Virus record (IMG/VR): IMGVR_UViG_3300021185_003522
Span: 1-64,000 of that record
DNA: 64,000 nucleotides
DNA from: a virus
Reading direction: 5' to 3' (one strand)
Under the pieces are notes generated by a model. That model searched no databases and was not told the DNA's origin. It was given only the letters and a program-made list of their open reading frames with translations. Below are positions 21,475 to 50,453 of the stretch, piece by piece. A program made the position numbers and the translations under genes. Position 1 is the stretch's first letter, and the number at the start of each line of letters is the position of its first letter.

Positions 21475-21486
21475 ATCACAGGCGCT

Positions 21487-21768: not shown

Positions 21769-21769
21769 C

Positions 21770-22647: not shown

Positions 22648-22660
22648 TTAGGAGTGGCAC

Positions 22661-31236: not shown

Positions 31237-32341
31237 GATTAGAATTGACGAAATTTACGATGGTGTTTTTGTACCACGTATTATAAATTACACTTTGGAA
31301 GATCAGAATAACAATACCTATAAAGTTGGGTTGCATTGGTTTGACCCGTTTGGCAGTACAGATTTCAAAAATATGTGTAATAAACCTCCAGTAGTGTGGA
31401 TGAATCCTGACGGGAGAGGTCCAAAAGGTAGCACCAGAGTTATAATGTGGGATCAGGAACCTTTGCATCGTTATCGGTTTACTCCTTTTTTTAAGCAGTT
31501 TCTTGAACGGCCTTATCGAGCAGAAACCTACAGACTTGTTACCAGTGAATGGCAAAGTGAAGACGTTGCCTGGGCCACTGATACTTATGGACTAGAGTCA
31601 GACTACTATTTCTTTCATGGTTGGGCAGCTCTTGACTGGTACCGTGGTTATAATCGTACTAGTTTAGCACAACCTTTTAAAGAACGCAAGCCTTTTAATA
31701 CTTTTCTTTGTCCTAATAATATAATTGGTGGTGAACGTAGACACAGAATAGAAATGCTTCAACAGTTTGTTGGGCGTGATTTGCTAGATAAAAACCTTAT
31801 ATCTTTTCCTGACGTATGTCCATATGAAGGACAAAGTTTACAATTGCTATGTGTAAAATATGATTTAGATTGTCCTCAAGTAAAACTACCATTAATGATT
31901 GATAACGGTTCAGGACATGCGGCACAGAGTCATCAAATTGATCTATGGGACCAAGCAAATAACAGTTTAATTCATGTTGTAACTGAAACTGTTTACAAAG
32001 GCCGTAAAAATCATTTAACTGAAAAATCATTTAAGCCTATTGTAATGCAACAACCATTTATAATACAAAGTTGTAAGGGCAGTTTAGAGTATCTGCGTAG
32101 GTATGGATTTCGTACATTTGGCGACTTTTGGGACGAATCATACGATGAAGCAGATGATTCAGTACGCACATATGAGATAGGTAAACTGCTACAAGACATT
32201 AACACTATGAGTCAAAAAGAAAAGGCCCAACTACAAACCGCAGTAAATAGTACTGTAGAGCACAATTACAATTGGTTTTACGGAGAAGAGTTTGAAAAGC
32301 AGTTATGGAACGAATTAACTACGATGACAAATAAATGGTAA
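31235..32341 (+). CDS. GT10-like glycosyltransferase-like protein, paralog 4
   Basis: RRHR; VTET...LTEKSFKPI...QPF...YGFRTFGDFWDESYD. Confidence 0.55.
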   Translation: MIRIDEIYDGVFVPRIINYTLEDQNNNTYKVGLHWFDPFGSTDFKNMCNKPPVVWMNPDGRGPKGSTRVIMWDQEPLHRYRFTPFFKQFLERPYRAETYRLVTSEWQSEDVAWATDTYGLESDYYFFHGWAALDWYRGYNRTSLAQPFKERKPFNTFLCPNNIIGGERRHRIEMLQQFVGRDLLDKNLISFPDVCPYEGQSLQLLCVKYDLDCPQVKLPLMIDNGSGHAAQSHQIDLWDQANNSLIHVVTETVYKGRKNHLTEKSFKPIVMQQPFIIQSCKGSLEYLRRYGFRTFGDFWDESYDEADDSVRTYEIGKLLQDINTMSQKEKAQLQTAVNSTVEHNYNWFYGEEFEKQLWNELTTMTNKW

Positions 32342-33510
32342 ATTTTTGTGCAGATAAATTTGTAAATGGAAAGCCCTACCCAAACTGTGCTACATGGGAA
32401 GCAGAGCCGTATACACCTGAATGGAAACAATTTAGTGTTAATGCTCCGTTTAGTGAGCCTGTACATTTTTATGAGTATTTAGATAAAGAAGGCATAGACT
32501 ATCTGGTACATGATAGTGTCCTGGCACCTTGGGATAGCATTTACCCTATAAGTCTAAGTTTCTTTGATTTTAATGTGGAGTGGGATAAAATTATCCCAAT
32601 GGAAGTACAAAATAGAGTACGTAGGAACGAGCTAAAAATTTGGTTTTTGTACAGCGAAGGCGACAACCCTTTTCGCATACAAAAAACCCTTAATAAACAG
32701 TTAGTTAAAGCTGGTATTCCGCTGGAAAATGTCCATTTTACCAGTGCAAACACTAAAAGTCGTGATCTTACAGGCTTTGGCTACATGTGTGACGATGAAT
32801 TATTGTACCGGCTCCGTAATGAGTCTTTAGCATTACCGTATCACGAGAACATCCGAAGTAAAAACTTTACTGCATTAGTGCGTACACATAAAAGTTGGCG
32901 TGCAAATACAATGGCACGTTTGTGGAGTAAAGGATTACACGAACGTGGGTATTTCAGTTATAATAATAAAATTAGTGTTGAAGAAACACCAGAAGACAAC
33001 CCAATTGAAATAGATAGTTTTGGTAGTCTAAAACATCATACTGAATTCTTTTTAAAATTATGTCCTTTCCATGCAGATCTACTATCTAGCAACGAACACA
33101 ATATGTATCATCATACAGTACAAGCTCACCACGACGATGCCTACTTTAACTTTGTGCTTGAAACACATCTAGACACGGACCAAAGTGGTGGTGTATTTTT
33201 AACAGAAAAAACTTTTAAACCTATAAAACATTGTCAACCCTTTCTAATTGCCGGAGCGAAAGGTAGCATTGAACAACTTCGCATTATGGGATATAGAACA
33301 TTTGATCATGTAGTAAATCACGACTATGACAGCATTGAAAATAACACACAACGCTGGAATGCAGTTTGCACCGAAGTTGAACGTATTGTTAAATCAAAAA
33401 AGATACATGAAATGTTTATAGAATGCAAAGATGATTTATTACATAATCAAGAATTATTTTTAAGTAATAAAAAGGCAACATTAGAAAGCATTTTAGAATG
33501 GGCAAAGTAA
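32335..33510 (+). CDS. GT10-like glycosyltransferase-like protein, paralog 5
   Basis: VLET...LTEKTFKPI...QPF...GYRTFDHVVNHDYD. Confidence 0.55.
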   Translation: MVNFCADKFVNGKPYPNCATWEAEPYTPEWKQFSVNAPFSEPVHFYEYLDKEGIDYLVHDSVLAPWDSIYPISLSFFDFNVEWDKIIPMEVQNRVRRNELKIWFLYSEGDNPFRIQKTLNKQLVKAGIPLENVHFTSANTKSRDLTGFGYMCDDELLYRLRNESLALPYHENIRSKNFTALVRTHKSWRANTMARLWSKGLHERGYFSYNNKISVEETPEDNPIEIDSFGSLKHHTEFFLKLCPFHADLLSSNEHNMYHHTVQAHHDDAYFNFVLETHLDTDQSGGVFLTEKTFKPIKHCQPFLIAGAKGSIEQLRIMGYRTFDHVVNHDYDSIENNTQRWNAVCTEVERIVKSKKIHEMFIECKDDLLHNQELFLSNKKATLESILEWAK

Positions 33511-34523
33511 GTAGTTACACAAGTTGGCAACCACTAGAAGAAGTTATTGTTGGAAGAGCATATACTCCAGATTACTTTGACTTCATAGAAGATGCACAAG
33601 TTAGAAATCAACTACAACAGATACTTGCTGAAACAAACGAAGACTTAAACAACTTACAAAAAACTTGCGAACAGTATGGCGCAGTCGTAAAACGGCCTTC
33701 TTTACCAGATAAAGACCAATTCATGAAATGGCAAACAACAGACGGAGGTGCACCATTACCCCCACTTACTCCAAGAGACTGGCAAATCAGTCTGGGCGAT
33801 AAACTGCTAAGAGTGTTACCAGTTGCGGAACTAAATGACATATGCGATGGATATGAAAACCAAGTGATAAATCCTCATGGAGAATACTTTGATCCTGCCT
33901 GTATACTAAATGGTGCTAGTGCAAGTTGCATCGTGCGTGTAGGCACTGATATATTTTTTGATAATAGCGACCACCTGCAACCTAATCAAAGTCGTTGGAT
34001 ACAAGAAAATTGTTTAGACAGCAGATATAGATTTCATGAAGCAATTACAGATGGACATGGCGATGCAGTGTTTGCAATCCTAAAGCCAGGCGTACTGCTT
34101 AGTAGCAAATGGGATGATCAATTGGATTTAGCAGGTGATTTTCCTGGATGGGACATTTGTAAAATATGGGATAGTAGCATTTGGGCCGCCATGGAAGTTG
34201 GAAAGTTTAAAGAACAAAACTTTAATGGTGCGTGGTATGTACAAGGACAAACTCCTACACAAGAGTTTACACAATTTGTTGACACTTATTTAAAGAAATG
34301 GGTTGGCTTTGTAAGTGATACTGTTTTTGATGTCAATTGTCTTGTACTAGATGAAGAGAATGTTATTTTCAGTGCCTATAACAAACAAGTATTCGACTAC
34401 TGCAAAAAACACAAGATAAATCCAATTATAGCAGAACTTAGACACAGTTACTTCTGGGATGGTGGTGTAAGTTGTTGTACACAAGATATACGTCGTAAAG
34501 GTGGTTTGGAAACTTATCTCTAA
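33498..34523 (+). CDS. amidinotransferase-family (pentein) protein 3
   Basis: WQPLEEVIVG, TPRD, GHGD and FWDGGVSCCTQDIRR. Confidence 0.87.
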   Translation: MGKVSSYTSWQPLEEVIVGRAYTPDYFDFIEDAQVRNQLQQILAETNEDLNNLQKTCEQYGAVVKRPSLPDKDQFMKWQTTDGGAPLPPLTPRDWQISLGDKLLRVLPVAELNDICDGYENQVINPHGEYFDPACILNGASASCIVRVGTDIFFDNSDHLQPNQSRWIQENCLDSRYRFHEAITDGHGDAVFAILKPGVLLSSKWDDQLDLAGDFPGWDICKIWDSSIWAAMEVGKFKEQNFNGAWYVQGQTPTQEFTQFVDTYLKKWVGFVSDTVFDVNCLVLDEENVIFSAYNKQVFDYCKKHKINPIIAELRHSYFWDGGVSCCTQDIRRKGGLETYL

Positions 34524-34837
34524 TACCAACCCATAATTAATTTGGTTTCTTCTGGAACCATTTCCATTGTAAACTGCGGTTCGAATACCAACTGTCTATC
34601 TATAGCACGCACACCTTCAGTATTAATCATTGCTTGTTCAATGTCATTACAGATTTGATCAGCAAACGGACATGCCATTGATGTTAGTGTGTGCTCCACC
34701 CGACACCTATCGCCATCTATTTCAATTTTGTAAATTAACCCTAAGTCGTATACACTAACACTGGGCATTTCTGGGTCATAGACTTTTTGTAATGATTCAA
34801 TCACACGTTGTCTAAGATCATTTTCTTCTAACTGCAT
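34520..34837 (-). CDS. DUF59/SufT (MIP18) Fe-S cluster maturation protein
   Basis: VYDPEMP..VYDLGLIY, TLTSMACP, FEP. Confidence 0.9.
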   Translation of the reverse strand: MQLEENDLRQRVIESLQKVYDPEMPSVSVYDLGLIYKIEIDGDRCRVEHTLTSMACPFADQICNDIEQAMINTEGVRAIDRQLVFEPQFTMEMVPEETKLIMGWY

Positions 34838-36333
34838 ACTGTTACGCCGTATTCTTTTTCAAAGCGATTAGCATCAGACCTGTCATCAACCATTGGCTCG
34901 CCTCTTATGTTAAGGCTAGTATTTAACAACATGGGACAACCTGTCTTTCTATACCATGCACTCAATAACCGCCTTATGCCACTATCATTATCTGGAACTG
35001 TTTGTACTCTGCTTGTTCCATCCACATGTATAATAGCCGGAAACTCTTCTGGCTTGGTGCAACGAGCAACCACCTGCATGTAACGACTTGTGGGTTGATA
35101 AAGAGGCATTGCAAAATAGTCATGTACATGCTCTTCAAGTATTACAGGAGCAAAAGGTCTAAACTTTTGTCTACGTTTAATTTCATTTACTCGATCTTTA
35201 ATGTCTGCTCCGCGTGGATCAGCAAGTAAACTTCTATTGCCCAGTGCTCTTGGACCAAATTCTGCACGTCCATTTGCAACTCCAACAATTTGATTTGTTT
35301 CTAATTCTTTCAACAGTTCGTCTACTGGATATTCTCCTGAGATATTTGAGCCCAGATAAGGTGTTGTAAAGTTTATGTCTCTACCATATGCATAAGCGGC
35401 CGCACCTAAACTGCTTCCTGCATCGCCTGGGTTTGGCATTATCCATATTTTGTTAAACAGTTCTCCCAATCGTCGATTGATAACACAGTTAAGAGCAACA
35501 CCGCCCATGTAAACTAGATTTTTACTAGTGCCAAGAGCCTTTGCTCTACGCATCACACCCATAACCATTTCTTCGCATAACCGTTGTCCTGCGGCGGCAA
35601 TATCCTCTACTGTAACATCAGCTGCAAACTCAACGTCATCAATGCCAAGGTGTAGATTATCTTTGAACAGTGGAATATCTGTAAATCGCACAGTTGCACG
35701 TTTTAATGTATTGTATGCCTTGTCAGCATCGCCGTAAGCAGCCATACCCATTGTGATGTATTCTTCATCCATTGGCTTTAATCCGCAACGTTTGGTTACT
35801 GCACTGTAGAACATACCAATACTGTGTGGATATGATTGCTTGTATAACAGTTTGTAATTTGCTTTAGCGTGTTCGCCTGCTAGGCATGCACCGTTGTAGT
35901 ATGCATGGTATATGCTGATTGTATCTGATTCACCAATAGCATCTATTACCACAACTGTTGCATCATCAAATGGTGATGTTTGAAAGCCTGCGGCCGCATG
36001 AGATAGATGATGTCCAACACTGCTGATTTCTGCAGATGTTTCATTCATTATATAAGGAATAGTACGTAGTAGTTCAGTTTGTGTACGCCAAGCACCGCCC
36101 CAACTTTCTCCGCTTTTGATTTTACGCAGTTGTCGTAGATGTGGCTTTTCATAGTATACTATCTTATCAAAAGGTCCGTATTCTTTTGCCTTCTGTTGTA
36201 GACTTACTGGAATAGTGCTATCGTTTTTGATCTTGCTGTAACGTTCTGCATGTCCTGCAAACAATACTCGGTGATTGTGCAGTACAGTTAAAGCCGCGTC
36301 GTGAAATCCTGCACTAACTCCTAGTATTCTCAT
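34828..36333 (-). CDS. O-carbamoyltransferase (NodU/CmcH/TobZ family)
   Basis: GFHDAA, ERYS, HHLSHAA, DAIGE, GGVALN, PGDAG, EFGPRALGNRS, FRPFAP, HVDGTSRVQTV, LNTSLN. Confidence 0.95.
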   Translation of the reverse strand: MRILGVSAGFHDAALTVLHNHRVLFAGHAERYSKIKNDSTIPVSLQQKAKEYGPFDKIVYYEKPHLRQLRKIKSGESWGGAWRTQTELLRTIPYIMNETSAEISSVGHHLSHAAAGFQTSPFDDATVVVIDAIGESDTISIYHAYYNGACLAGEHAKANYKLLYKQSYPHSIGMFYSAVTKRCGLKPMDEEYITMGMAAYGDADKAYNTLKRATVRFTDIPLFKDNLHLGIDDVEFAADVTVEDIAAAGQRLCEEMVMGVMRRAKALGTSKNLVYMGGVALNCVINRRLGELFNKIWIMPNPGDAGSSLGAAAYAYGRDINFTTPYLGSNISGEYPVDELLKELETNQIVGVANGRAEFGPRALGNRSLLADPRGADIKDRVNEIKRRQKFRPFAPVILEEHVHDYFAMPLYQPTSRYMQVVARCTKPEEFPAIIHVDGTSRVQTVPDNDSGIRRLLSAWYRKTGCPMLLNTSLNIRGEPMVDDRSDANRFEKEYGVTVCS

Positions 36334-36863
36334 TATAACCTGTCTTCGTATTCAGATACCGGAGGTATTTCACCGGTAGTCATTTCAGTATCTTGTGTGG
36401 AAAATGTTATTGTAGCAACATAGTCGCATTTGTTGTTGCATATTGGATCTACTATTGGTGTGAATACCATGCCTTCTTCATAGGTCCAGTTGCCTGTTTG
36501 CCATCCAGTTTTGTTCTCACTAGTACCTGAGGTCTGACTGGTAGCAGTAACATCAAAATACATTTTTATATTTTGATCATCTGCAGGTAAGTCACCTCTG
36601 TTTACTGTATAGCCATTGTTGCCATCCGCAGTAATCTCAGCAGTCATCCATACAGGATCTGTGCCTTGAAAAAAGTCTAGCCAATCTTTTAAGGTTTTTT
36701 TCCAATCTTTGTCAACAGTGTTGGTAATTGTGCCACCATTGGGATCAACAGTATGAATGTGATGTTTGGTACGCACTGCACTACTGCGATCCTCTATCCA
36801 ATTAATTGTGTAGGGAGTATTGTTTACAATTGTTAATACATTAGACCAATGATTTTTACTCAT
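36333..36863 (-). CDS. hypothetical protein
   Basis: 176 aa, beta-rich, translationally coupled between metK and the carbamoyltransferase. Confidence 0.7.
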   Translation of the reverse strand: MSKNHWSNVLTIVNNTPYTINWIEDRSSAVRTKHHIHTVDPNGGTITNTVDKDWKKTLKDWLDFFQGTDPVWMTAEITADGNNGYTVNRGDLPADDQNIKMYFDVTATSQTSGTSENKTGWQTGNWTYEEGMVFTPIVDPICNNKCDYVATITFSTQDTEMTTGEIPPVSEYEDRL

Positions 36864-37967
36864 TTACCAACCTATCTTCTCCCAAGGAACATCTTTGTTG
36901 CCAAAGTGTCCGTATGTGCAATTTGCACTGTAGTTGTAAAAGTTGAAAAGATCAAATCTATCAATTATACCTTTAGGTGTGAGATCAATGTTTTCACGTA
37001 TAAACTTTTGTATACTGCGATTGTGTCCATTTGAATCTATGTAGACACTGGTAGGTTCTTTTACACCAATGGCATATGATATCTGTATTTGACACCAGTC
37101 TGCCATGTCGTCTGCTACAACGTTCTTTGCTAACCAACGTGCCATATATGCTGCCGTTCTATCTACTTTTGTAGGATCTTTTCCTGAGAAAGCACCACCA
37201 CCATGAGGAGCAAAGCCGCCATAGGTATCAACGATAATTTTGCGTCCTGTAAGGCCAGTGTCACCATCAGGACCACCAATGACAAAATTGCCAGTTGGAT
37301 TAAGATGGAATACAGTCTTGTCATCTATTAAATCTCCTAGTACTTCTTCGCATGCCGATCTTGTAGCCATACGTGCGGGTTCATAAAAGCTCTCATCTTT
37401 GTGTTGTTGACTTACCACAACTTGATCAATACGTTTTACCTTACCGCCGTCATACTCTACACTAACTTGACTCTTAGCATCAGGTCCAAGATATTTGTAT
37501 CCATCTACACGTTTTTCTTTTATATTTTTTAATATTTCATGAGAATAGTAAATTGGGGCGGGCAGATACGCATCATTCCCATTGCATGCGTAACCAAACA
37601 TAATACCTTGATCACCTGCACCAAAATCGTCTGTGCCCAGTGCAATGTCGGCACTTTGTGAGTGCAATTGATTGTTGATTGTTTTATTATCAACTGTCAG
37701 TTTATCCCAATGAAATCCCGCTTGCTCGTAGCCAATCTCTTTTACTTTGTCTCTTATAATTTGTTCAACTTGTTCATCAGAGATATTAAAGTTTTTAACT
37801 TCACCTGCTAGTACAACATAGTTTGTTGTGACCATTGTTTCAACTGCTACTCTGGTTGTTTCATCACCGGCTTTGAGTCCAGCGTCAACCAATGCATCTG
37901 ATATTTGGTCTGCTATTTTGTCAGGATGCCCTTCGCTCACTGACTCTGATGTAAAAATATAACTCAT
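36864..37967 (-). CDS. metK: S-adenosylmethionine synthetase
   Basis: FTSESVSEGHPDK, GAGDQG, GGPDGDTGLTGRKIIVDTYGG, GGGAFSGKDPTKVDR. Confidence 0.98.
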   Translation of the reverse strand: MSYIFTSESVSEGHPDKIADQISDALVDAGLKAGDETTRVAVETMVTTNYVVLAGEVKNFNISDEQVEQIIRDKVKEIGYEQAGFHWDKLTVDNKTINNQLHSQSADIALGTDDFGAGDQGIMFGYACNGNDAYLPAPIYYSHEILKNIKEKRVDGYKYLGPDAKSQVSVEYDGGKVKRIDQVVVSQQHKDESFYEPARMATRSACEEVLGDLIDDKTVFHLNPTGNFVIGGPDGDTGLTGRKIIVDTYGGFAPHGGGAFSGKDPTKVDRTAAYMARWLAKNVVADDMADWCQIQISYAIGVKEPTSVYIDSNGHNRSIQKFIRENIDLTPKGIIDRFDLFNFYNYSANCTYGHFGNKDVPWEKIGW

Positions 37968-38068
37968 TTGTATATAAAAGGATCCCTTTTCCGTAGTTCT
38001 TTAAGTTTCTTACGATATCGTATTTCTAGTTTTATCTTATTAAAAAGATTCTTAATCCATGTTATCAT
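37964..38068 (-). CDS. 34-aa basic peptide ending DPFIYK
   Basis: MITWIKNLFNKIKLEIRYRKKLKELRKRDPFIYK; its TGA overlaps the metK ATG. Below the ORF-track size cutoff. Confidence 0.6.
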   Translation of the reverse strand: MITWIKNLFNKIKLEIRYRKKLKELRKRDPFIYK

Positions 38069-38738
38069 TATACACACCTTTTGTCTGTTTGTCAAGTAGT
38101 TCTGGATCAAATAATGGAACTGCACAAAAAGTTAAAGTACCTTTGTTTATCTTTGATACAGAACGCTTATAAGCAATTACAGTTTCTAAGTTATAGTAAT
38201 TATACTCAGGATCAATAGGGGTTGTCCATTTTAAACTGCTGCCAATTTGTGTTCCATGTTGAACATCATAGTTTGGTTCAACAGTACCTGCAAATTCATT
38301 GAAGTCAGTGTTCCAGTCTAGTAAGTATGGCAGTATTAGCAGGCGCCATCCTTTTGACATTTTTGCACGCCAAGGATAGTTAAGAATTTTAAATCTATAT
38401 TCATATAGACTGTAATCATCATCTGCCCAAGGTTTATCTCCTTTATTACCAAATATTGTGCCGTCAACCATTGGGGCTGATACTCTGCCCCTTGCAAAAT
38501 ATGTGTCGTATCCATCTAAGTCTTCTGGTAATGGAATAGTATAACCAATACTTGCAAGTCCTCTAAAACCTAAACAATTTCTTATTGTTTGTTGTTCAGC
38601 AAATGTAACTTCATCTCTTTTTCCTTTAAGTTTTTTAAACCATTCAGGCATGTGGTTACGCATAGGTGTAGGTGCTGGACATTTAAGGTACTGTATTTCT
38701 GGATCATCACAGTATTCCCACTCAAGAAAATTATTCAT
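38052..38738 (-). CDS. hypothetical protein (DUF6065-like)
   Basis: PEWFKKL...TIRNCLG...GYTIPLP...PW...GW pattern; family name from memory only. Confidence 0.45.
   Translation of the reverse strand: MNNFLEWEYCDDPEIQYLKCPAPTPMRNHMPEWFKKLKGKRDEVTFAEQQTIRNCLGFRGLASIGYTIPLPEDLDGYDTYFARGRVSAPMVDGTIFGNKGDKPWADDDYSLYEYRFKILNYPWRAKMSKGWRLLILPYLLDWNTDFNEFAGTVEPNYDVQHGTQIGSSLKWTTPIDPEYNYYNLETVIAYKRSVSKINKGTLTFCAVPLFDPELLDKQTKGVYNDNMD
38067..38095 (-). promoter_or_regulatory. consensus sigma70 promoter upstream of metK
   Basis: Minus strand TTGACA(38095-38090)-17-TATAAT(38072-38067), inside the 3' end of ORF 38052-38738. Confidence 0.7.
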
Positions 38739-39787
38739 ATCAAAGGTACCTGCAGTTGTTTACTATCTGCCCAAGTGTAATCATATTCAGCATATGAATC
38801 ACTGGTTTTAATACTATATACATCAAGATGATTAGTTAATATACTTAAAACTCCTTGAAAATCTTTACAAGCAAAACTTTTCTCCAGATCAACCTGTCCA
38901 ATTTTTGGGTGTCCTATTGTTAAACTTGGATCGTCAGGATCAAAATTATTAGCAACTAGCCATTTCCTAAACTCGTTTAGTTTAGTTTGCATAAAAGGCC
39001 TATCACGGGTATCTTGTCCCCATTCTATGTCAAAGTCACCAGCAGCCTCTGTTTGTGGTTTTAATGTTGTAGTTGTTAATTCATCAATACGACTGTCTGC
39101 ACCTTCATCCTGGAACACTTCATAATGGTGTTTACCAACTGCTTTGTTAACTCCAACATACACACCGCCGTGGTCTCTTGCTATAGAATCAATTCCAAAC
39201 AGGTTGTAGTCTTCGTCGTCTAGTATAAACCGCGGTGCATGTAACCAACACATTACGTTACTCGGACGTACCCATTCTGGAGCACTGGTTACTTTACCTA
39301 AGCTCATGATTAAACATTCTGCCTCGTGACATAGTAAGTTCAATTGTCTTATGTGCCATCGTGTTTCTGCATCTGCATTTGTGTAATGTTTGCTCATTGC
39401 ACCACTTACTCCTTGTGTTTCTTCAAAGTATAAATGCAACTGGTTAAGTTTGTCATGATTGAGGCCAATAATTTCGCAATTTCCTAATTTGCTCCAACGC
39501 TTAGTTGTCATGTTTGCAACTGTAAAATAGTCTTTTATTTCGTAGTCAATGCTACTACCGTTTATAGCCGCAATGGTTTGATTTATTTGCGTTACAATCA
39601 CATCAAGATCACGTTCGCAATTTGGAAAGCCCATAAAACAGTAATTCTTTTCGAGATGTAGTTTATTATCTAAAACATCATTGAATGCATTTAACCATTT
39701 TTTACTTAGACTGTTATCATAAACATCAAAGTATACGTGTAATAAACCATCTGCTCCACGCAGTTTCATTTCTATTCTATCCAGCAT
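38735..39787 (-). CDS. hypothetical protein in the radical SAM operon
   Basis: 350 aa, coupled to the last rSAM gene; LNQLHLYFE, LNLLCHEAE and VGKH motifs. Confidence 0.75.
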   Translation of the reverse strand: MLDRIEMKLRGADGLLHVYFDVYDNSLSKKWLNAFNDVLDNKLHLEKNYCFMGFPNCERDLDVIVTQINQTIAAINGSSIDYEIKDYFTVANMTTKRWSKLGNCEIIGLNHDKLNQLHLYFEETQGVSGAMSKHYTNADAETRWHIRQLNLLCHEAECLIMSLGKVTSAPEWVRPSNVMCWLHAPRFILDDEDYNLFGIDSIARDHGGVYVGVNKAVGKHHYEVFQDEGADSRIDELTTTTLKPQTEAAGDFDIEWGQDTRDRPFMQTKLNEFRKWLVANNFDPDDPSLTIGHPKIGQVDLEKSFACKDFQGVLSILTNHLDVYSIKTSDSYAEYDYTWADSKQLQVPLI

Positions 39788-41105
39788 CGATTCTATCCCA
39801 CCATTCTAATGTTTCTTCGCATCCTTGCGGGCCAGCAAATATATCTCTCATGCATAGTGCATTAGGACGTATATTTTCTAAAGTAAGTATTCTGCGTTTA
39901 CCTTTACGCATACCTCTCCAGTATTCTTCTTCGCTATACTGCTCTTGAAGGGTAGGTCTATTTTTAAGTTGCAGTAGTACATCACGCAGTGCGTTTCCAA
40001 GTATAAATTTATTTACTATGCTATCAATCTTGCGGTCAAGTAAATCACGTGGCAGTGCAAGTGGCGACATTATAACATCAGGCGTAAAAGTGAATATTAC
40101 TTTTGCTAATATATCCACATCCAAATCATCAGCCAGTGCCTGCATATTACTTACGTCCTGCATACCTGGCAGTGTAAGAGTGTAGTCTAAACGCATCATA
40201 CGTCTATTATGAGCTAATGGTAAAAGCACTTTAAAATTATCAACAAATTCTTTATACTTCAATCCTGTACGTATGTATTCGCCGATTGCACCTGTACCAT
40301 CTAAACTAGCACATATTTGCCAGTCACGTATATTTTTTAGTATATCATGGCCTAAGTGTATACCTTTGTATTTTATTCTACTCAAGTTTGTATTATACCT
40401 TGCATACAACTTTGGACCATCACCAAGTTCCACTATACGTTTCATGTACCGCCAGTGCTGTTCGTACATCAGTGGTTCGCCACCTACCCAATATATCTCT
40501 TCGACCCTGTGTTCCTCAACTGCATCTGAAAACTCTTTTTCAATTTGTGTGTCTTGAAATTTGCTTATTTCTTTACGAACCTCTGGACGCATCCAGTTGT
40601 TTTTTGGGTTGTCTAAATTAACCATGTTGTGTTTTTTCTGTTCTGTTTCCCAACTTGAACTTAGCATATCACCGCAGGTACGACACTTAAAGTTACACAA
40701 GTTTGAAAATCTATAATCCCAACTGATTGGCTTCATGCTGGTCCAACCTGTATCGTCTGTACTGGTCCACAGTTCATCATAACGGTGTTGAAACAAATGC
40801 CAAAAGTATGTTCTATATACATCAGTGTTTAACAGTTTGTCTGTACAGACTTCGCACTCGCTAAGTTTTTCGCCTGCCATCATTCTGCGTCTAACACTAC
40901 GCATGTGTTCGCTATTCCAATGTTCTTCTAATGTATTTGGGTTGTACTTTCCTGTGCCTGATGCAGTATCAATATACTGTTCAAAGCTCTGTGCTGGTTC
41001 ACGTGATGCACAACACATTCTACGTTCAGTCTGGGGAGACAGATAGGTATGTGTCCAAGGAGCCATGCACAATGTTTCAGGCTTTTGTTCAGGCCTGTCT
41101 ACCAT
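39777..41105 (-). CDS. N-terminal twitch-domain radical SAM protein (5)
   Basis: CMAPW...MCC...CEVC, then CNFKCRTC (CxxxCxxC), GGEP, YNTN, SLDG. Confidence 0.9.
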   Translation of the reverse strand: MVDRPEQKPETLCMAPWTHTYLSPQTERRMCCASREPAQSFEQYIDTASGTGKYNPNTLEEHWNSEHMRSVRRRMMAGEKLSECEVCTDKLLNTDVYRTYFWHLFQHRYDELWTSTDDTGWTSMKPISWDYRFSNLCNFKCRTCGDMLSSSWETEQKKHNMVNLDNPKNNWMRPEVRKEISKFQDTQIEKEFSDAVEEHRVEEIYWVGGEPLMYEQHWRYMKRIVELGDGPKLYARYNTNLSRIKYKGIHLGHDILKNIRDWQICASLDGTGAIGEYIRTGLKYKEFVDNFKVLLPLAHNRRMMRLDYTLTLPGMQDVSNMQALADDLDVDILAKVIFTFTPDVIMSPLALPRDLLDRKIDSIVNKFILGNALRDVLLQLKNRPTLQEQYSEEEYWRGMRKGKRRILTLENIRPNALCMRDIFAGPQGCEETLEWWDRIDAG

Positions 41106-41665
41106 ACAAATGCTATCTGTTCTTGTTCAGTGAGTATTGTTTTTTTAAACAGTTCTGCACCTTTGTGAACATTCTCACGCCATTCATTGCCCTGTGCATC
41201 GCCATCTGAATCACTATCTGAAATATACTTGTAACAGTCAAACGGAATCATAAACTTTGTTGCAACCTTGGCAAGTGCATATGCTTCCATTTCGCATATC
41301 TGATAGTTAATATGTGGTACACTAAAACTATCACCTGTGCCACAAACAAATAAACTGTCGTGCTTTGTTTGGCAAACGATCATCTGTTCTTCGTCTCCTG
41401 GGCTTACATACAGAGGCAGTCCCAATGGTGTGCAATCCATGTCTCTTTCTATCACTGCACTTATACCTACTAGTTCGCCTTTAATTTCTTTACTACCGCC
41501 TGCTGAACCATAATTTATTATTTTGCTATATCTATCATTATAACACAATTCTGCAGTAAGAGCAATACTAGCGTTTACTTTTCCTACACCTGTAACTAGC
41601 TTTTTATATCCACTTGGCAAAGTTCCCGGCAGTTCTTCTTCTAATGCGATAACAACTAGTATCAT
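41099..41665 (-). CDS. 5'-methylthioadenosine/SAH nucleosidase-like protein
   Basis: ALEEE, TGVGKVNA, NYGSAG, TGDSF, EMEAYA, KYISD. Confidence 0.85.
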   Translation of the reverse strand: MILVVIALEEELPGTLPSGYKKLVTGVGKVNASIALTAELCYNDRYSKIINYGSAGGSKEIKGELVGISAVIERDMDCTPLGLPLYVSPGDEEQMIVCQTKHDSLFVCGTGDSFSVPHINYQICEMEAYALAKVATKFMIPFDCYKYISDSDSDGDAQGNEWRENVHKGAELFKKTILTEQEQIAFVW

Positions 41666-42867
41666 GTGTTTGGTCCTTTGTATTCTATAGCTTCTGCTAA
41701 TTCAGCATGATGTGTACATAAATCTTGTTTCCTACGCCAATCTACATCAGCAACTTTCATGCGTAAAATGTTTCCATCTAAACTTGCACCACCATTTATA
41801 AAGTCAATTATGTTGTTGAATTCTTTTCTGTGATATTCTGTTACTTTTGCGTTTTTTAATTTTCCTATTGCAACTTTTTTTGCACGGTCTGGTAATGTTC
41901 CAACACTATGATAATACGCTTCGTGCAACATGTTCCAATATACAAAGTCAAAATTGCGTTGATCAATCCAATTTGCAAGTCCTTCTAAATACATTACATT
42001 AAAAACGTTTACTGTGGAGCAAACCTGTAACTGTATGTTTGTATTACGATCACGCATCGCCTCAAACCGATCCATGTTAGTGTTCACTTCTTCCCATATA
42101 GCATTAGCACGTTGATATTCAAAACGTTCACCAACATCATCAATACTAAATGCTATCTCAATTAACTTAAAATGTTTCCATATCTCTTCTGCATGTTCTG
42201 GAAACTGTGTTCCATTAGTATTATAGTGTATTTCAACATTATGTGCAATACCTTTATCAACCATTCTTTGTAGTAAATCAAAATGTTCTTGTATCATGAA
42301 AGGTTCGCCACCGGTAAACTCTAAGTACCGGACTTGCTCCATTAGTTTGTCAATCTCTGTCCAAAACTTTTGATTGCGTCTTGGCCATGCTCCATCTTTA
42401 AGCATTTGGTAATGAAAGCTGTCTTTGCCCTCAAACTTAACTTCTTCAGCCGCAAACGTACTTGAACTCCAACTACCGCATATACGGCATTTTAGGTTAC
42501 AAATGTTGCCCAGTTTAAAATCTATAAACACCAGTGGCTTTGCATCAGCAGTCCATTCAGTATCGGTAACAATATGTTCTAATCTGTTAAGAGTGTGCAT
42601 ACGTTTTGATGTACGCCCTGAACGTTCTTCATTCCAGCACTTACGGCATGTTTGTGGCTTCTTGCCATCTAAAAATTCTTGACGTAGTTTTTGCATGTAT
42701 TTGCTAGTATGAACTTCGTTAAGATCTGTTGTTAATAGGCTATACTTGTTTCCATCTGTATCTGTAATCTCATCCTCTGCTAAACAACAAGGCCTGGTAG
42801 TGCCAATAGGTGACGTTTCTAAACTTACCCAAGGCAAGACACAAAATGTTTCATGTGGTAATTTCAC
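41662..42867 (-). CDS. N-terminal twitch-domain radical SAM protein (4)
   Basis: CVLPW...PCC...CRKC; CNLKCRIC; GGEP; YNTNG. Confidence 0.9.
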   Translation of the reverse strand: MKLPHETFCVLPWVSLETSPIGTTRPCCLAEDEITDTDGNKYSLLTTDLNEVHTSKYMQKLRQEFLDGKKPQTCRKCWNEERSGRTSKRMHTLNRLEHIVTDTEWTADAKPLVFIDFKLGNICNLKCRICGSWSSSTFAAEEVKFEGKDSFHYQMLKDGAWPRRNQKFWTEIDKLMEQVRYLEFTGGEPFMIQEHFDLLQRMVDKGIAHNVEIHYNTNGTQFPEHAEEIWKHFKLIEIAFSIDDVGERFEYQRANAIWEEVNTNMDRFEAMRDRNTNIQLQVCSTVNVFNVMYLEGLANWIDQRNFDFVYWNMLHEAYYHSVGTLPDRAKKVAIGKLKNAKVTEYHRKEFNNIIDFINGGASLDGNILRMKVADVDWRRKQDLCTHHAELAEAIEYKGPNT

Positions 42868-44147
42868 TTTAATGCTCCAAGTTCTGGTATTACATCTAGT
42901 ATATTCTCATTTCGTATACCATCAAGTTGATTGGTCTTTTGCCAAAACTTTTCTAGTAAATGTGTATTGTCTGTTTTGAGATATTGTATTGCACTTTCAA
43001 ACCCTACAGTTGCTCTGTTTAATTGGTCAAGTGGTCGTAACCATTCAAGATGTTTTTCATACTTTGAGATAATCTGATCTTTATACTCTTGTGGTGCAAT
43101 ATCTATTCTGTAATAATCTGGATCTTGAAGTATGTTTATATTAAGATCTTGTGCTCTTATCAAACCTTTACCAGCCCATTCTCTATGAAAGTGAGGAATG
43201 TGCAGTGCATTCATTATGCTTAACGTCGGGCTGATATAAAAGTCAACCTGTGGACATATCTCCATCATCTGTCGTCTGTTCTCTTCAACAACACTCCATT
43301 TGGTACCTTTGCGTATGTATTCAGCACGTGTACCCATTGCATCTAAACTTGCACCAACTGCAACACTGTCAAACTTTTTCCAGTAGTCAAATACGAGTCT
43401 ATCTTTTAATTGTACATGTGTAAAATTTGTATTGTAAATCAGTCTGACATCAAATCTGCCTCTGCGTTCCAGTTCTTCTAAGATAACATAGTGTTCATCC
43501 ATCATGCAAGGTTCGCCGCCAGCAAAGTATATCTGCTCAACATGATCTAAATGTTCCATTAGTTGGTCCATCATGTCAGTTTTGAAACGTCCAGCATAGT
43601 TTAACACATTGTTGTTCTTTGCCCATTCAGGACCTGCTAGTGCAGTTTGGTCTTTATACCAACTGCTGGAAAATATATGTCCACAACTTCTGCAACTTAG
43701 GTTACAAAGATTTGAAAAACGTATGTCCCAATAGGTCATTTCAAAATCTTTGTATTCACCGTCTGGTGTTGTGTCTTTTGTTCTGTGTATGTGATGTCCG
43801 TGATGCTTGTTAGCACTTTGTCTACCTGAGAAGAAGCCTGACTTCTCCTGTTCGTAACAACGTCCGCATGCACTGTTCTCTGTTTCTGTTAGCATGTCTT
43901 TACGTAGTTGCTTTTGTTCTGCACTATTCCATATTTCAGTCATGGTGTTTGTTTTACAGTTGCCTACCTGTCCTACGCCCATTTCAGCATGACAACAAGG
44001 ATATGCTTCGCCTGTTGGATATGCGTGTAGATGTATCCAAGGATACATACAAAATGTTTTGCTTTCACTAAGCAAAAACTGTTCGCGTTGCTCTAGGTCG
44101 CTTAACTTTATCTTAATAGGATCACTGCTATTATAATTATAACTCAC
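42864..44147 (-). CDS. N-terminal twitch-domain radical SAM protein (3)
   Basis: CMYPW...PCC...CGRC; CNLSCRSC; GGEP; YNTN. Confidence 0.9.
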   Translation of the reverse strand: MSYNYNSSDPIKIKLSDLEQREQFLLSESKTFCMYPWIHLHAYPTGEAYPCCHAEMGVGQVGNCKTNTMTEIWNSAEQKQLRKDMLTETENSACGRCYEQEKSGFFSGRQSANKHHGHHIHRTKDTTPDGEYKDFEMTYWDIRFSNLCNLSCRSCGHIFSSSWYKDQTALAGPEWAKNNNVLNYAGRFKTDMMDQLMEHLDHVEQIYFAGGEPCMMDEHYVILEELERRGRFDVRLIYNTNFTHVQLKDRLVFDYWKKFDSVAVGASLDAMGTRAEYIRKGTKWSVVEENRRQMMEICPQVDFYISPTLSIMNALHIPHFHREWAGKGLIRAQDLNINILQDPDYYRIDIAPQEYKDQIISKYEKHLEWLRPLDQLNRATVGFESAIQYLKTDNTHLLEKFWQKTNQLDGIRNENILDVIPELGALK

Positions 44148-45489
44148 TGAACCACTCTTTCATGCTTGGAAATGCTTTGTTAAAATTTTTGTTGCGACGT
44201 ATATCATATTGATTATAAAACTGTTTAAAATCATTGTGCAACTTTGGAGTTTCAAATGCTTCACTGTGAGGTGTTTTTACAACATCTAAATAGTCGAGCA
44301 ATCTCTGTGTTTGATTTAATTCGTGTTCATGAAGAAATTTATTATCTGCATTTTCATCATACCATTCTTGTAATCTATTCTTATGCAATGTGCGTAAATG
44401 ATCAGGTAAAGCAAGTGCAGATTGAAAACTAGGAAAACGTAATATATTCAATGTAAAACTTGGATAGTCTCTACCGTACATTTCTTTAAACTTTAATAGG
44501 TAACCTAAAAATTCTGGTAATGTTTCTAAGCACAGTGCATTCACTGTACACATATTATGTAAACCACGTAACTTGCCACTGCCTGCTAACAAATGCATGT
44601 TTCTTGCCCATGTACTCCATTCTAAGCCATCACGTATATACTCAGCTTGATGTACTAAACTTTCGTTTGATGTATAGATATCAAGTGGAGCACTATCAGC
44701 TCTATCAAGTAATTTATAAATTTGCGAATCGTCGCATTGTAAGTTACTATTAATTGCGATGCGAGTCTTGCTTGCACCTTTGTTCTCTTTAAACCAGTCT
44801 AACAGTTTCCACAAGTGTCCACTCATCATCGGTTCGCCACCAGTAATACGTAGCTCGTCTAGGGTATAGTGCAAATCACTTTCCCACCATTTGAAGAATG
44901 CTTCAATGTAGGGGTTAGTTTCATTAAACTTATACAATTGACTACTATCATGTGGATGTGTAAAATGATTACGCCCATCGCTGATTAAATTTTCATATGA
45001 ACCATTCTTCTTAATGTCTTTTACCCATGTGGTTGAGAAAGCAGGATTGCAATAGCTACACGCAAGTTGACAAGTTCTATCAAATGCAATTTCTAGTGTC
45101 TTAAGATTAACGTCAATTTGATGATCACGTTCATATGCGGCCTGCAGTGCATTATCCTCATAGATTACACTTTTATAGACTCTATCACTGATATTATCTC
45201 TGCCTATGTCTTCTACTTTCCAACAGTATTCGCAACCCTTAGGACGCTCACCACACTGCATTTGTCTACGTTCTTCTTTTTTCTCAGGTGTGTTGTGTAG
45301 TGCCTTTGGATTAGCAATCACATCTTCCACACTTACTTTATGTGGCAGTGGATGATGGCAACTTGTAGTCATACCAGACCCTAGCCAGATGGTTGCATTG
45401 TACCATTTGGCGCCACACATACTTGAACTTAGTGGATCAAGCACTCGTTGTTTATAATTTAGGTCAGTTTCATTTGCTTGTTTGGGCAT
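44137..45489 (-). CDS. N-terminal twitch-domain radical SAM protein (2)
   Basis: CGAKW...SCHHP...CEYCW; CQLACSYC; GGEP; TAATTA-N5-ATG start. Confidence 0.9.
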   Translation of the reverse strand: MPKQANETDLNYKQRVLDPLSSSMCGAKWYNATIWLGSGMTTSCHHPLPHKVSVEDVIANPKALHNTPEKKEERRQMQCGERPKGCEYCWKVEDIGRDNISDRVYKSVIYEDNALQAAYERDHQIDVNLKTLEIAFDRTCQLACSYCNPAFSTTWVKDIKKNGSYENLISDGRNHFTHPHDSSQLYKFNETNPYIEAFFKWWESDLHYTLDELRITGGEPMMSGHLWKLLDWFKENKGASKTRIAINSNLQCDDSQIYKLLDRADSAPLDIYTSNESLVHQAEYIRDGLEWSTWARNMHLLAGSGKLRGLHNMCTVNALCLETLPEFLGYLLKFKEMYGRDYPSFTLNILRFPSFQSALALPDHLRTLHKNRLQEWYDENADNKFLHEHELNQTQRLLDYLDVVKTPHSEAFETPKLHNDFKQFYNQYDIRRNKNFNKAFPSMKEWFSEL

Positions 45490-45507
45490 ATGTATAATTA
45501 TACAGAT

Positions 45508-46995
45508 TTAGATGTTAGCAAGATATTTGCACTCTTCCCACCATGTAGACATTTCAGGAAAAGTTTTTAAAAAATTTGTATTACGGCGTCTATCATGTTC
45601 GTTAAAGAATCTGTAGAAGTCTGCTTTGTTCTGTTTTATATATTCTGGATCTAGATTTTGTCCGCTACGCATCCATGCAATGTCTCTATCAAGTCTAGCA
45701 ACTTCGTAATCTTTGAATCCTTTAAAACGGTTCTCTTCTGTTTCTAAATTATCTTGCATCCATTTTTTACTTATTTCAAGTTCGTGGACATAGCTTTCAG
45801 GAAGTATCTGTAAACTTTGCCATGTGGGTGTACGGAGCACAGGCGTATCAAACCATATACGTTGGTAAGTGTTACTGTATATTTGACGCAACCCCAGTAT
45901 TGAAGTAAAAAGTTTTTGTAAACTTGTGATGCTTAAATTATTCATTGTAATAATAAACGTTAAACTGCTACGTTCTGGTACATCTATTAGAAACTGATTT
46001 ACTCTGTCCCAAAGCAAGTTAAAGTCCAATCCATGACGCATGTATTCTGCTGGTTCAAACATGCCATCGAGGCTTACATACTGCATAAAGTGTTCAACTG
46101 TTCCTTGCTTTTCACAAAGCATTGTTACATAAGCCTTGTACTTTTGCCAAAGTTTCTCTTCAACACTGAAGTTGGATGTAGTACTAAGATGTAACTTTGG
46201 TGATGGGTTCATTAGAACATGATCGAATACTCTGTATGTGTTTTTATCCATCATTGGTTCACCACCAGTCATTCTAAAATGTTCAAGCTCAGGATATAAT
46301 GTTGGCCACCATTTCCAAAATGCTTCAACATAAGGATTGTGTTCTCTTGCGGGTATGGGCCTGCGTTCTCCTACAAAGTGACTAGGATCATTGTGTGGTG
46401 TTGAAGTTGGCCATGCACCTTCACGTTGTGTTTCTTTCATCCAACTACTACTATACTGAGGTGAACAATAACTACAACTTAGATTACAAGCACTGTTAAA
46501 GTCAACCTCAACATAACTAGGAACTATATCCTGATCCCACGGTGCATTCTTAATAGTTTCAAAGTCTTTCATTGCCCACGGCTCGCCTGAACGATAGTGT
46601 CTATCACTGAGTTTGTTGTTGTCTTCCATAGCCCAACAATAACTACACTCTGGCGGTCTAGTGCCTTCAAGCATAAGTTTACGTTGTTGCTTCTTGTGTT
46701 CTGTGTTGTGCAATGCACTTGGATTAGTTTTTATTGCTTCAGCATCTGCTCTGTGCAGTGGAGGATGATAACAACTGTTGTTCATACCAGTTGTTAAATG
46801 CAAACTCAGTTGTTTCCATTTTGCCAAACAGAAACTAGGCGACACAGTATCTAGTTTCTGTTGTGCCCGTTCAGCATCACTTAGAAACTTACTTTTAAAG
46901 TCTTTGCTAACTTCATCACCTTTATTTTGAGTTACCAACCTTCTTGACTCCGGATCACATCTATTTCTCTTGTCATAATTGATTGATTGTGCCAA
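45508..46995 (-). CDS. N-terminal twitch-domain radical SAM protein (1)
   Basis: CLAKW...SCYHP...CSYCW; CNLSCSYC; GGEP; the true start may be TTG near 46938. Confidence 0.9.
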   Translation of the reverse strand: MAQSINYDKRNRCDPESRRLVTQNKGDEVSKDFKSKFLSDAERAQQKLDTVSPSFCLAKWKQLSLHLTTGMNNSCYHPPLHRADAEAIKTNPSALHNTEHKKQQRKLMLEGTRPPECSYCWAMEDNNKLSDRHYRSGEPWAMKDFETIKNAPWDQDIVPSYVEVDFNSACNLSCSYCSPQYSSSWMKETQREGAWPTSTPHNDPSHFVGERRPIPAREHNPYVEAFWKWWPTLYPELEHFRMTGGEPMMDKNTYRVFDHVLMNPSPKLHLSTTSNFSVEEKLWQKYKAYVTMLCEKQGTVEHFMQYVSLDGMFEPAEYMRHGLDFNLLWDRVNQFLIDVPERSSLTFIITMNNLSITSLQKLFTSILGLRQIYSNTYQRIWFDTPVLRTPTWQSLQILPESYVHELEISKKWMQDNLETEENRFKGFKDYEVARLDRDIAWMRSGQNLDPEYIKQNKADFYRFFNEHDRRRNTNFLKTFPEMSTWWEECKYLANI

Positions 46996-47852
46996 TTACT
47001 ACGATAGTGATGTTTGAAAAATTTGCTTTGCTCAGGATTGTAGGTATTCATTGGTAGACCTAGTTGACGTTCTAAGTCTTGTTCTTTATCAGTGACTAAT
47101 TCATTGGATGAACGGTCTTTGACTTCGTTCCATATGTCTTCTAATAGATTAAAATCTTGAACTTTTTTGTAGTCCCAATCGCTTAACATTGTTTTCCAAG
47201 TTCCTAGTCTTGCGCCTGCAATTGCCCATAGTCCATGTTCTGTGTCTGCACCAATGTTGTGCCATATGGTTAGATGGTCTAGGTTTCTATTGTGTACACT
47301 TTCTCTAAATTCACTTACACTTGGTTTTGAACCTCTGTCAAGACACATTTTTACGCCTTCTCTAAAGCCTGCACGGAACGCATGTTTTGCACTTTCTCCA
47401 GGATAGGTAGTTGAATAACAGTTGTACATTGGCCAATATAGATCATCAAAGCAAAACTCTACGTCAGTGTCATCTGCGCCTTCAGAGGCTTCGTGTGTAC
47501 GCATGTTTTGTACAAATGTTTTTGTCCATGAGCTTATTCCGCCGTTGCCGTACATTAGTCCATTTATATCGTTCCTTGCACGCCATCTGTAAACTGCTTG
47601 TTCATACTGTTCTGTTTTATATTCTATAGTTTCGTTAAAAAAACTTTCTTGCGGCAAGTTATCACCGTCAATCAAGATAAAACGTTCAGTATCGCTGGCA
47701 TCAGCAGCCGCTTTGTGTGCAGCATCAGAACCTTTGACTCCGTCTACACGTTTTGCCCACGGAACCATATTGCGTATCTTTATCCAAAACTCTTCTTTTT
47801 TAGGTTCATCATAGCTCAGGTATATGCAATCTAAATCAGCAACATCAATCAT
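46932..47852 (-). CDS. GT-A-like glycosyltransferase-like protein
   Basis: DCIYLSYDEP and DxD motif (LIDGDN); paralog of the C-terminal domain of ORF 29695; AGGAG RBS before ATG 47852. Confidence 0.6.
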   Translation of the reverse strand: MIDVADLDCIYLSYDEPKKEEFWIKIRNMVPWAKRVDGVKGSDAAHKAAADASDTERFILIDGDNLPQESFFNETIEYKTEQYEQAVYRWRARNDINGLMYGNGGISSWTKTFVQNMRTHEASEGADDTDVEFCFDDLYWPMYNCYSTTYPGESAKHAFRAGFREGVKMCLDRGSKPSVSEFRESVHNRNLDHLTIWHNIGADTEHGLWAIAGARLGTWKTMLSDWDYKKVQDFNLLEDIWNEVKDRSSNELVTDKEQDLERQLGLPMNTYNPEQSKFFKHHYRSNWHNQSIMTREIDVIRSQEGW

Positions 47853-48225
47853 TCTTTCTATACTCTCCTGAGAATGGTGTAAAATCAGTACCGCCAGCAA
47901 TTACGCAGGCAACGTTAAAGCCATTAACTTTTTGATAACTGAAAATGGTAAATGTCCTTGTTTTTGGATTCACATACATAAGCAAATCAACAGTGACCAT
48001 ATCAGGTTTCATAAGTGGTTTAATTGCAAATACTCCACTTGCAAACTCTTGTTCGCCATGCTTGTTTACTATATCTGAAAGATAGTCAATGCCTTGCTCA
48101 CTGCATGGTACCTGCATGTTTAACAATAGCTGTGTTCTGTCTGGCTTTGGCTTTGGTTTTGGTATTTCTTGAGCGTTGGTGTTAAATGCGGTAAGCAGTA
48201 ACACCAGTATAATTAGGTGTTTCAT
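47845..48225 (-). CDS. exported hypothetical protein
   Basis: Signal peptide MKHLIILVLLLTAFNTNA; two Cys. Confidence 0.7.
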   Translation of the reverse strand: MKHLIILVLLLTAFNTNAQEIPKPKPKPDRTQLLLNMQVPCSEQGIDYLSDIVNKHGEQEFASGVFAIKPLMKPDMVTVDLLMYVNPKTRTFTIFSYQKVNGFNVACVIAGGTDFTPFSGEYRKND

Positions 48226-48242
48226 TGTTTTTCCAATCTATT

Positions 48243-50382: not shown

Positions 50383-50398
50383 ATTTTTACTTAGCCAC

Positions 50399-50433
50399 AA
50401 AAAAACCCTAGTTAATAAAAACTAGAGTTTTTT
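50399..50433 (-). terminator. rho-independent terminator after structural gene 50454-51407
   Basis: Minus strand AACTCTAG...CTAGGGTT hairpin followed by a T run; an A/T run on both sides suggests it may be bidirectional. Confidence 0.65.
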
Positions 50434-50453
50434 AGGTTTTCTATATTAAAATA

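Follow-up and report, generated by a model that had tools for sequence, protein, structure and literature searches.

The first 64 kb of the 125,233-base linear virus record IMGVR_UViG_3300021185_003522 (CheckV completeness, 36%), hereafter called the window, carry an array of five radical S-adenosylmethionine (SAM) enzyme genes, which we designate paralogs A to E. They lie within a long row of genes, running from 53584 down to 34520, in which the open reading frame (ORF) map has minus-strand genes only, overlapping or a few bases apart. In the direction of reading, these are E (45508-46995 (-), 495 aa), D (44137-45489 (-), 450 aa), C (42864-44147 (-), 427 aa), B (41662-42867 (-), 401 aa), and A (39777-41105 (-), 442 aa), with a gene for a nucleosidase of the 5′-methylthioadenosine/S-adenosylhomocysteine (MTA/SAH) type (41099-41665 (-), 188 aa) inserted between B and A. 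Downstream follow the genes for MetK, a SAM synthetase (36864-37967 (-), 367 aa), and for a DUF59/SufT-like Fe-S assembly protein (34520-34837 (-), 105 aa). A first-pass annotation, made from the sequence alone, had already described this layout, and the positions as well as the identities, checked against Pfam, NCBIfam, and the PDB, were confirmed.

All five paralogs match the N_Twi_rSAM model NF033640 over its full length, with 279.1 (A), 338.2 (B), 404.4 (C), 279.3 (D), and 298.9 (E) bits against a curated cut-off of 170 bits. C is the most typical member of the five, and with C as the query, 7,400 of 8,000 scored candidate proteins match at an E value of ≤1e-10. On these scores, A to E are genuine members of the N-terminal-twitch radical SAM family, as had been proposed. 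The unusual domain order is also borne out. In Pfam searches, a SPASM-type domain precedes the radical SAM core in A (13-88, core from 132), in C (33-98, Radical_SAM at 143-284), and in B (9-78, core from 119), the last with 19.8 bits and therefore under the Pfam cut-off of 21.5; it was not detected in D or E, and B alone among the five passes the Pfam cut-off for Radical_SAM. In the five-way alignment, seven cysteines are invariant: C13, C32, C84, and C87 (A numbering) in the N-terminal part and C137, C141, and C144, which form the CxxxCxxC motif. The same seven are invariant across 23 orthologs of A and 22 orthologs of B, and a GGEP motif (SAM-binding, GGE-type) is invariant in all five paralogs and in the ortholog sets. 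The alignment thus shows that each enzyme keeps CxxxCxxC for the SAM-cleaving cluster and, N-terminal to it, four cysteines for a predicted second cluster.

Two subtypes had been told apart by their cysteine motifs, and the alignment indeed has CC in A, B, and C and SC in D and E at the corresponding site. A maximum-likelihood tree of 79 sequences (the six copies of the whole record, together with sequences drawn from 9 of the 72 phage and 12 of the 70 bacterial loci, which were picked for spread) separates D and E from A, B, and C with a support of 99 on each side in the Shimodaira-Hasegawa-like approximate likelihood ratio test (SH-aLRT). Each paralog has one ortholog clade of its own (SH-aLRT, 99 to 100; E, 99; D, 100; A, 100). 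From the split and the separate clades we conclude that the two subtypes are real and that the duplication is ancient. A recent expansion of the five genes is ruled out by their pairwise identities of 19 to 26% and, again, by the separate ortholog clades.

A scan of viral contigs with C gave 72 loci on contigs of up to 344 kb. With orthologs called by tblastn with the window proteins at an identity of at least 40%, all five are found in 55 of the 72, and the order is E-D-C-B-A in 55 of 55. Of the 17 loci short of the full set, 14 end at a contig end, and 3 (L064, L066, and L067) hold a different, divergent array. Three loci (L003, L004, and L005) have identical layouts, probably represent one phage sampled three times, and are thus probably not independent. 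Many C orthologs (L023 to L047 and others; P0002, P0003, P0013, and P0014) are 539 to 573 aa long and so exceed the C of the window by about 125 to 145 residues at the N terminus, which is either a real domain or an over-long ORF call. Fusions provide a second line of evidence for a common function. A search for longer proteins returned 31 at an E value of ≤1e-20, 27 of which carry an A ortholog (42 to 67% identity) as their C-terminal half; the N-terminal half of these 27 fused clusters is a B ortholog in 19 (36 to 50%), distantly B- or C-like in 7 (25 to 31%), and unmatched in 1. Since B and A are neighbours in the array and have been fused repeatedly, we take this as evidence that they act together; a predicted complex of B and A scored 0.00, which has no bearing either way. 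With their fixed order, one-to-one ortholog clades, and B-A fusions, the five enzymes look like a working team, and, judged from gene content and order in the relatives, the five-gene set forms the centre of a module that is conserved in a lineage of uncultured giant phages from marine waters, with genomes of about 320 to 345 kb.

These genomes carry additional family members. The whole record contains six matches above the cut-off, the sixth at 81368-82513, outside the window, and the numbers per record in five large relatives are 11 in G001, 8 in G002, 6 in G003, 6 in G004, and 8 in G005. The sixth copy is inserted between Mre11-like (gp47-type) and Rad50-like (gp46-type) genes; as L073:8994-10544 (+), it encodes 516 aa, with an N-terminal extension of about 125 aa. 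Among isolated phages, no match to the 12.5-kb stretch was found by megablast, and tblastn of C gave only three jumbo-phage records at 22 to 23% identity; tblastn of C against plasmids found none.

The family is also present in bacteria. A scan of genome contigs kept 79 loci, of which nine (L074 to L082, 48 to 70% identity, filed as bacterial metagenome-assembled genomes [MAGs]) were set aside as putative phage contigs. Of the remaining 70, 29 have two or more family members and are mostly Bdellovibrionota contigs, and in single-copy bacterial homologs the neighbours are housekeeping genes. The maximum, eight N_Twi_rSAM genes, is reached at 6040-18036 of L084, a contig of a Bacteriovoracaceae MAG. 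The array of L084 is adjoined by rplU, obg, and rsfS, which identifies the contig as bacterial, and its copies are sisters of the phage A, B, D, and E clades in the tree, indicating a set common to these phages and predatory bacteria.

The three helper genes are genuine. MetK matches TIGR01034 at full length (431.4 bits versus 309.4) and all of PF00438, PF02772, and PF02773. The nucleosidase reaches 43.9 bits with PNP_UDP_1 (Pfam cut-off, 25.1) and stays below all NCBIfam equivalog cut-offs (NF004168, 80.2/129; NF004079, 48.1/169; TIGR01704, 30.6/73.8). Its PDB sequence matches are MTA/SAH nucleosidases in 17 of 17 cases, and its EMEA and ISD stretches align with the DMET/EMEA and ISD of solved enzymes, stretches which we take to hold the catalytic Glu and Asp of MTA/SAH nucleosidases. 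The DUF59 protein matches PF01883 (59.3 bits versus 23.5) and lies below the SufT-type cut-offs (TIGR02945, 94.7/143.4; TIGR03406, 64.2/202.6), with PaaD models scoring similarly. MetK makes SAM, and DUF59 proteins aid Fe-S loading.

The first-pass annotation had expected these helpers to accompany such arrays in phages and to form a self-contained SAM and Fe-S supply. The first expectation is true of the operon of the closest clade and does not hold in general. Of the 55 loci that have both B and A, 13 have the nucleosidase between the two, each with C at 82% identity or more, and the 42 loci with C at 56 to 76% are all without it. The gene of a conserved 34-aa peptide is followed by MetK in 5 of the 39 loci whose flank extends over 3 kb or more (the raw listing has MetK in 10 loci), and a carbamoyltransferase gene is followed by DUF59 in 4 of 24 loci with enough flank. 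The large records of the relatives agree with this picture. G001 (328 kb, complete) has all three helpers in the module; G002 (316 kb, 91% complete) lacks MetK and has the nucleosidase and DUF59; in G003 (344 kb, complete), a search of the whole record found none of the three; and G004 (338 kb, complete) lacks DUF59 and has MetK 116 kb and the nucleosidase 83 kb from the array. In G004, MetK (57% identical to that of the window) is three genes from a carbamoyltransferase paralog (46%), and the nucleosidase (45%) adjoins an amidinotransferase paralog (30%). At 315000-325000 of this distant relative (L153), MetK stands in one row with the carbamoyltransferase paralog and a UvdE-type UV endonuclease. 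Taken together, the distributions over loci and whole records make the helper genes optional, and they indicate that the helpers entered the operon of the window's clade at three separate points; an old association, if there is one, may be with the module as a whole rather than with the radical enzymes alone. The second expectation is contradicted: searches for flavodoxin, Fer2 ferredoxin, and IscU came back empty in 5 of 5 records, so that the helpers do not amount to a self-contained kit. All four near-complete relatives have an A-type Fe-S carrier (PF01521), far from the array.

Upstream of MetK lies a perfect sigma-70 consensus promoter (38067-38095 (-), TTGACA-N17-TATAAT), which ends at the start codon of the 34-aa peptide. 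It is one of three perfect TTGACA-N16-18-TATAAT sites in the window, the others being at 1108-1135 (+) and 48501-48529 (-), the latter inside a 115-aa gene at the upstream edge of the module. Only 0.09 such sites are expected, and none of 100 shuffles reached three. The promoter before the peptide and MetK is kept in seven close relatives that carry MetK as well (L001, L002, L003 to L005, L010, and L011), and this conservation suggests that the RNA polymerase of the host can transcribe from here through MetK and the following genes. More perfect sites occur within the module in relatives, such as those immediately before D in L003 to L006 and L008. The T4 late-promoter word TATAAATA is not enriched in the window (3 versus 7.8 expected), and the counts of generic promoter-like and terminator-like sequences equal those of shuffles. 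In RNA libraries (four runs of one study), short contigs 90 to 99% alike touch 27 to 29 of the 30 bins of 34000-51000; DNA carry-over is possible and contigs cannot rank genes, and thus, we do not take them as proof of transcription.

Around the array, the relatives share a gene order of 248-aa, 271-aa, 115-aa, and 322-aa proteins, E-D-C-B-A, a 350-aa protein, the 34-aa peptide, the carbamoyltransferase, and a convergent 341-aa protein. The carbamoyltransferase (34828-36333 (-), 501 aa) is of the NodU/CmcH type (Carbam_trans_C, 173.3 bits; Carbam_trans_N, 119.3 bits), and of the 39 related loci whose flank is long enough, 28 carry it. The 341-aa protein (33498-34523 (+)) is an amidinotransferase: a profile of its family (17 orthologs and paralogs) matches L-arginine:glycine amidinotransferase (AGAT) with an E value of 1.4e-26, and also HsvA, SxtG, and StrB1. 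The best AGAT stretch covers profile positions 279-343, the region of the C-terminal catalytic Cys, and C326 is invariant.

The 322-aa protein (46932-47900 (-)), which precedes E and has an invariant DGDN, resembles glycosyltransferases of the GT-A type. It has no Pfam match; its Atlas lead is to "Glycosyltransferase 2-like" clusters, Foldseek gave weak hits to TarP, ArnC, and GtrB (E values of 0.06 to 0.3), and among the VIA matches listed (Z scores of 5.3 to 7.2), 50 of 50 are GT-A glycosyltransferases or sugar nucleotidyltransferases. A 513-aa protein at 29695-31236 (-) has a C-terminal part that is similar, by eye, to this GT-A-like protein. The 350-aa protein (38735-39787 (-)), which always comes directly after A, in relatives, too, was modelled by AlphaFold2 with a mean confidence (pLDDT) of 89.7, and the model suggests a beta-barrel into which a four-helix bundle is inserted; VIA gave middling matches (helical insert, Z score of 9.3; cyclophilin-like barrel, Z scores of 7 to 8), Foldseek gave no PDB match at an E value of ≤0.001, and the Atlas search gave no usable match. 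The 248-, 271-, and 115-aa proteins (48243-50083 (-)), syntenic in most related loci, form the upstream module edge and have no Pfam match.

Variable genes complete the module. Relatives carry inserted epimerase/dehydratases (13 ORFs in 11 loci), FkbM and class I methyltransferases, SGNH-like DUF6071 proteins, and additional radical SAM and B12-radical SAM genes. A 71-member insert family occurs in the modules of 41 related loci and is distantly like the window genes at 31235-32341 (+) and 32335-33510 (+); it has no Pfam, PHROG, or PDB match. A "GT10-like" reading of these two genes, which rests on an ET...TEK..P motif seen by eye, was unsupported by profile search. Profiles of this family and of the 322-, 350-, and 248-aa proteins found nothing credible among PDB sequences, and Pfam searches at an E value of ≤1 with the 34-aa peptide and six unannotated proteins found nothing useful. 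The 26- to 30-kb region of the window has two NAD epimerase/dehydratases, a DegT aminotransferase, and, by eye, an LmbE-like motif.

What do the five enzymes act on? Distant solved relatives were sought with a profile of eight family members. Its N-terminal domain (profile positions 24-95) aligns to the twitch domain of BtrN with an E value of 5.4e-6, and its core aligns to the cytosylglucuronate decarboxylase BlsE (E value, 6.7e-6), viperin, and MoaA. BtrN, BlsE, viperin, and MoaA act by abstracting hydrogen at sugar, cyclitol, or ribose carbons. On the strength of these relatives and of the gene neighbourhood, the best reading is the stepwise editing of one sugar-type substrate by A to E, which we consider somewhat better than an even bet. 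The enzymes would share one substrate (a sugar, a sugar nucleotide, or a glycan), from which each would abstract hydrogen at a carbon of its own, with B and A acting as a pair, and the neighbouring GT-A-like, amidino-, carbamoyl-, amino-, and methyltransferases would build and decorate the sugar. The product would probably become part of a structure on the virion or the cell surface. In the window's clade, MetK would supply SAM, the nucleosidase would remove 5′-deoxyadenosine, SAH, or MTA, and DUF59 would aid Fe-S loading. The helper genes, probably inserted one by one, would be useful add-ons that are not required, and reductant and Fe-S assembly would still be derived from the host.

Several points weigh against sugar editing or against the part assigned to the helpers. 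No member of NF033640 has a tested reaction, and therefore, a sugar substrate rests on neighbourhood and distant similarity. The GT-A assignment of the 322-aa protein depends on weak scores (Foldseek E value of 0.06 or worse; VIA Z score of 7.2 or less). The arrays of Bdellovibrionota are without an obvious sugar-gene context; in L084, the adjoining genes are the three named above, and a nucleotidyltransferase is further off. SPASM/twitch enzymes as a class often modify peptides. As for the helpers, the location of MetK and the nucleosidase next to transferase paralogs in G004 means that they may serve the general SAM and adenine economy of the module. Of three longer nucleosidase homologs, two (P0153 and P0154) are fused to a phosphoribosyltransferase (PF00156), which points to adenine release coupled to salvage, and none of the three is a fusion of a nucleosidase with a radical SAM enzyme, which is weak evidence of absence.

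The strongest rival is the modification of a peptide or virion protein, such as a fibre-like protein or the 3383-aa protein encoded upstream, by cross-links, epimerised residues, or C-methyl groups, as is done by the SPASM/twitch maturases of ribosomally synthesized and post-translationally modified peptides (RiPPs). The module stands behind virion-structural and tail-fibre-like genes on the same strand: the genes just upstream match tail-fibre and virion-structural PHROGs, with the 3383-aa protein matching phrog_10938 (E value, 1.3e-200). B and C have NCBIfam matches to WgkB, StsB, PapB, and the anaerobic sulfatase maturase, all weak and far under the cut-offs. The operon also encodes the conserved 34-aa peptide (37964-38068 (-)), which had been named as a candidate substrate. 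This peptide is basic, ends with DPFIYK, is translationally coupled to its neighbours, and is duplicated in four related loci (L001, L026, L034, and L071). It is without Cys, though, and its distribution follows another gene: 38 of the 72 loci have the peptide gene, with that of the carbamoyltransferase or of MetK coming next in every case, and it is absent from 11 of 11 loci that have the five enzymes without the carbamoyltransferase. By its distribution, the peptide belongs with the carbamoyltransferase and makes an unconvincing substrate for the radical SAM enzymes, and the earlier suggestion is not upheld. No other conserved short ORF was seen beside the array, and thus no adjacent precursor peptide co-occurs with the enzymes as in RiPP systems. 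With sugar or nucleotide enzymes as the best solved matches and sugar-type enzymes as the variable genes of the module, we regard a peptide or virion-protein substrate as unlikely.

Together with the twitch radical SAM enzymes, the amidinotransferase and the carbamoyltransferase could also make a soluble compound, similar to aminoglycosides or of a guanidino-carbamoyl type, as in aminocyclitol antibiotic pathways, instead of a surface glycan. The amidinotransferase profile matches StrB1 and SxtG besides AGAT, the carbamoyltransferase is of the type noted above, and the twitch domain matches BtrN, but the conserved GT-A-like proteins of the module suggest transfer to an acceptor, neither an exporter nor a resistance gene could be recognised among the module genes, and the position behind structural genes fits a virion or surface target better, which makes a free product distinctly improbable. 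Chemistry on nucleotides or phage DNA, be it hypermodification or a viperin-like reaction, is very improbable, since the faint resemblance that the core bears to viperin and MoaA (viperin scores of 16 to 39 bits versus a cut-off of 180), the place of the sixth copy between recombination genes, and a ThyX in the window (seen by eye from the translation) are set against sugar-type transferases as the conserved partners and a module in which no DNA-modification enzyme family was found.

The sugar-editing reading can be extended, in a form that we offer as a possibility and hold to be doubtful. The N-twitch family might then be a new class of enzymes that activate C-H bonds of sugars, and the five-enzyme line, with B and A as a physical pair, might work with the amidino- and carbamoyltransferases to make an extensively modified guanidino/carbamoyl sugar resembling aminoglycosides, which the GT-A-like proteins might attach to virion fibres or the host surface. 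The SAM synthesis and by-product removal of the window's clade, under a strong early promoter, might sustain these reactions in a SAM-poor host.

How does the phage array compare with known systems? NF033640 describes the same domain order and cysteine pattern, and with the five window proteins and the sixth copy all above its cut-off, the family is already catalogued and is not itself new. Differences from NF033640 at large are the fixed five-paralog set in phages, the B-A fusions in relatives, and the helpers in one clade. With BtrN (PDB 4m7t), three cysteine columns match exactly and the fourth within one residue, and the likeness is at the domain level only (domain i-Evalue, 0.009); the probable substrates are sugar-like in both cases. 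HygY, SpeY, and AprD4 are further BtrN-type twitch radical SAM enzymes of aminoglycoside pathways. In BtrN-like enzymes, the twitch domain comes after a partial TIM-barrel core, whereas in the phage enzymes it comes before the core. The nucleosidase recalls Pfs, an MTA/SAH nucleosidase that relieves the inhibition of BioB and LipA by 5′-deoxyadenosine. The phage enzyme likewise lies inside a radical SAM array, with MetK, and its activity on 5′-deoxyadenosine is predicted; unlike in the Pfs rescue, it is encoded in the operon and in one clade only.

The nearest viral precedent is a T4-like environmental genome of 183 kb, which has 12 radical SAM genes and in addition an A-type carrier, grx, cas4, and paaD, a member of the DUF59 family; its authors proposed that the Fe-S assembly genes of viruses act on the viruses' own Fe-S proteins (Nishimura et al. 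2017; PMC5332604). The phages studied here resemble that genome with their DUF59 in the module and the A-type carrier in the near-complete relatives. The N-twitch family, the fixed five-gene order, MetK, and the nucleosidase are not described in the passages of that paper that were consulted. Our literature search found no paper naming the NF033640 family or describing the array. What the window adds is the clade-specific insertions of MetK, nucleosidase, and DUF59 with a strong promoter, which the relatives show to be optional. NF033640 is large, and the five-enzyme set is a defined system for reconstitution, with Rosetta-stone fusions and conserved transferase partners; in the closest clade, it includes its own SAM synthetase and nucleosidase. 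A phage with cofactor logistics for its own radical enzymes would extend the observation of viral Fe-S helpers made for the T4-like genome (PMC5332604). If the product decorates virions or host surfaces, the module bears on host recognition in abundant marine phages.

Two further genes are interspersed in the downstream part of the module. A 228-aa accessory protein (38052-38738 (-)), present in few related loci, has a match to phrog_7084, and a 176-aa protein between MetK and the carbamoyltransferase (36333-36863 (-)) has no Pfam, NCBIfam, or PHROG match. Elsewhere in the window, the region from 16255 to 23920 carries cargo genes for an AsnB-like amidotransferase, a TctA-family transporter subunit, a MoxR-type AAA ATPase, and a DUF2201 VWA/metallopeptidase protein, and tRNA-Arg and tRNA-Thr are encoded at 10326-10483.

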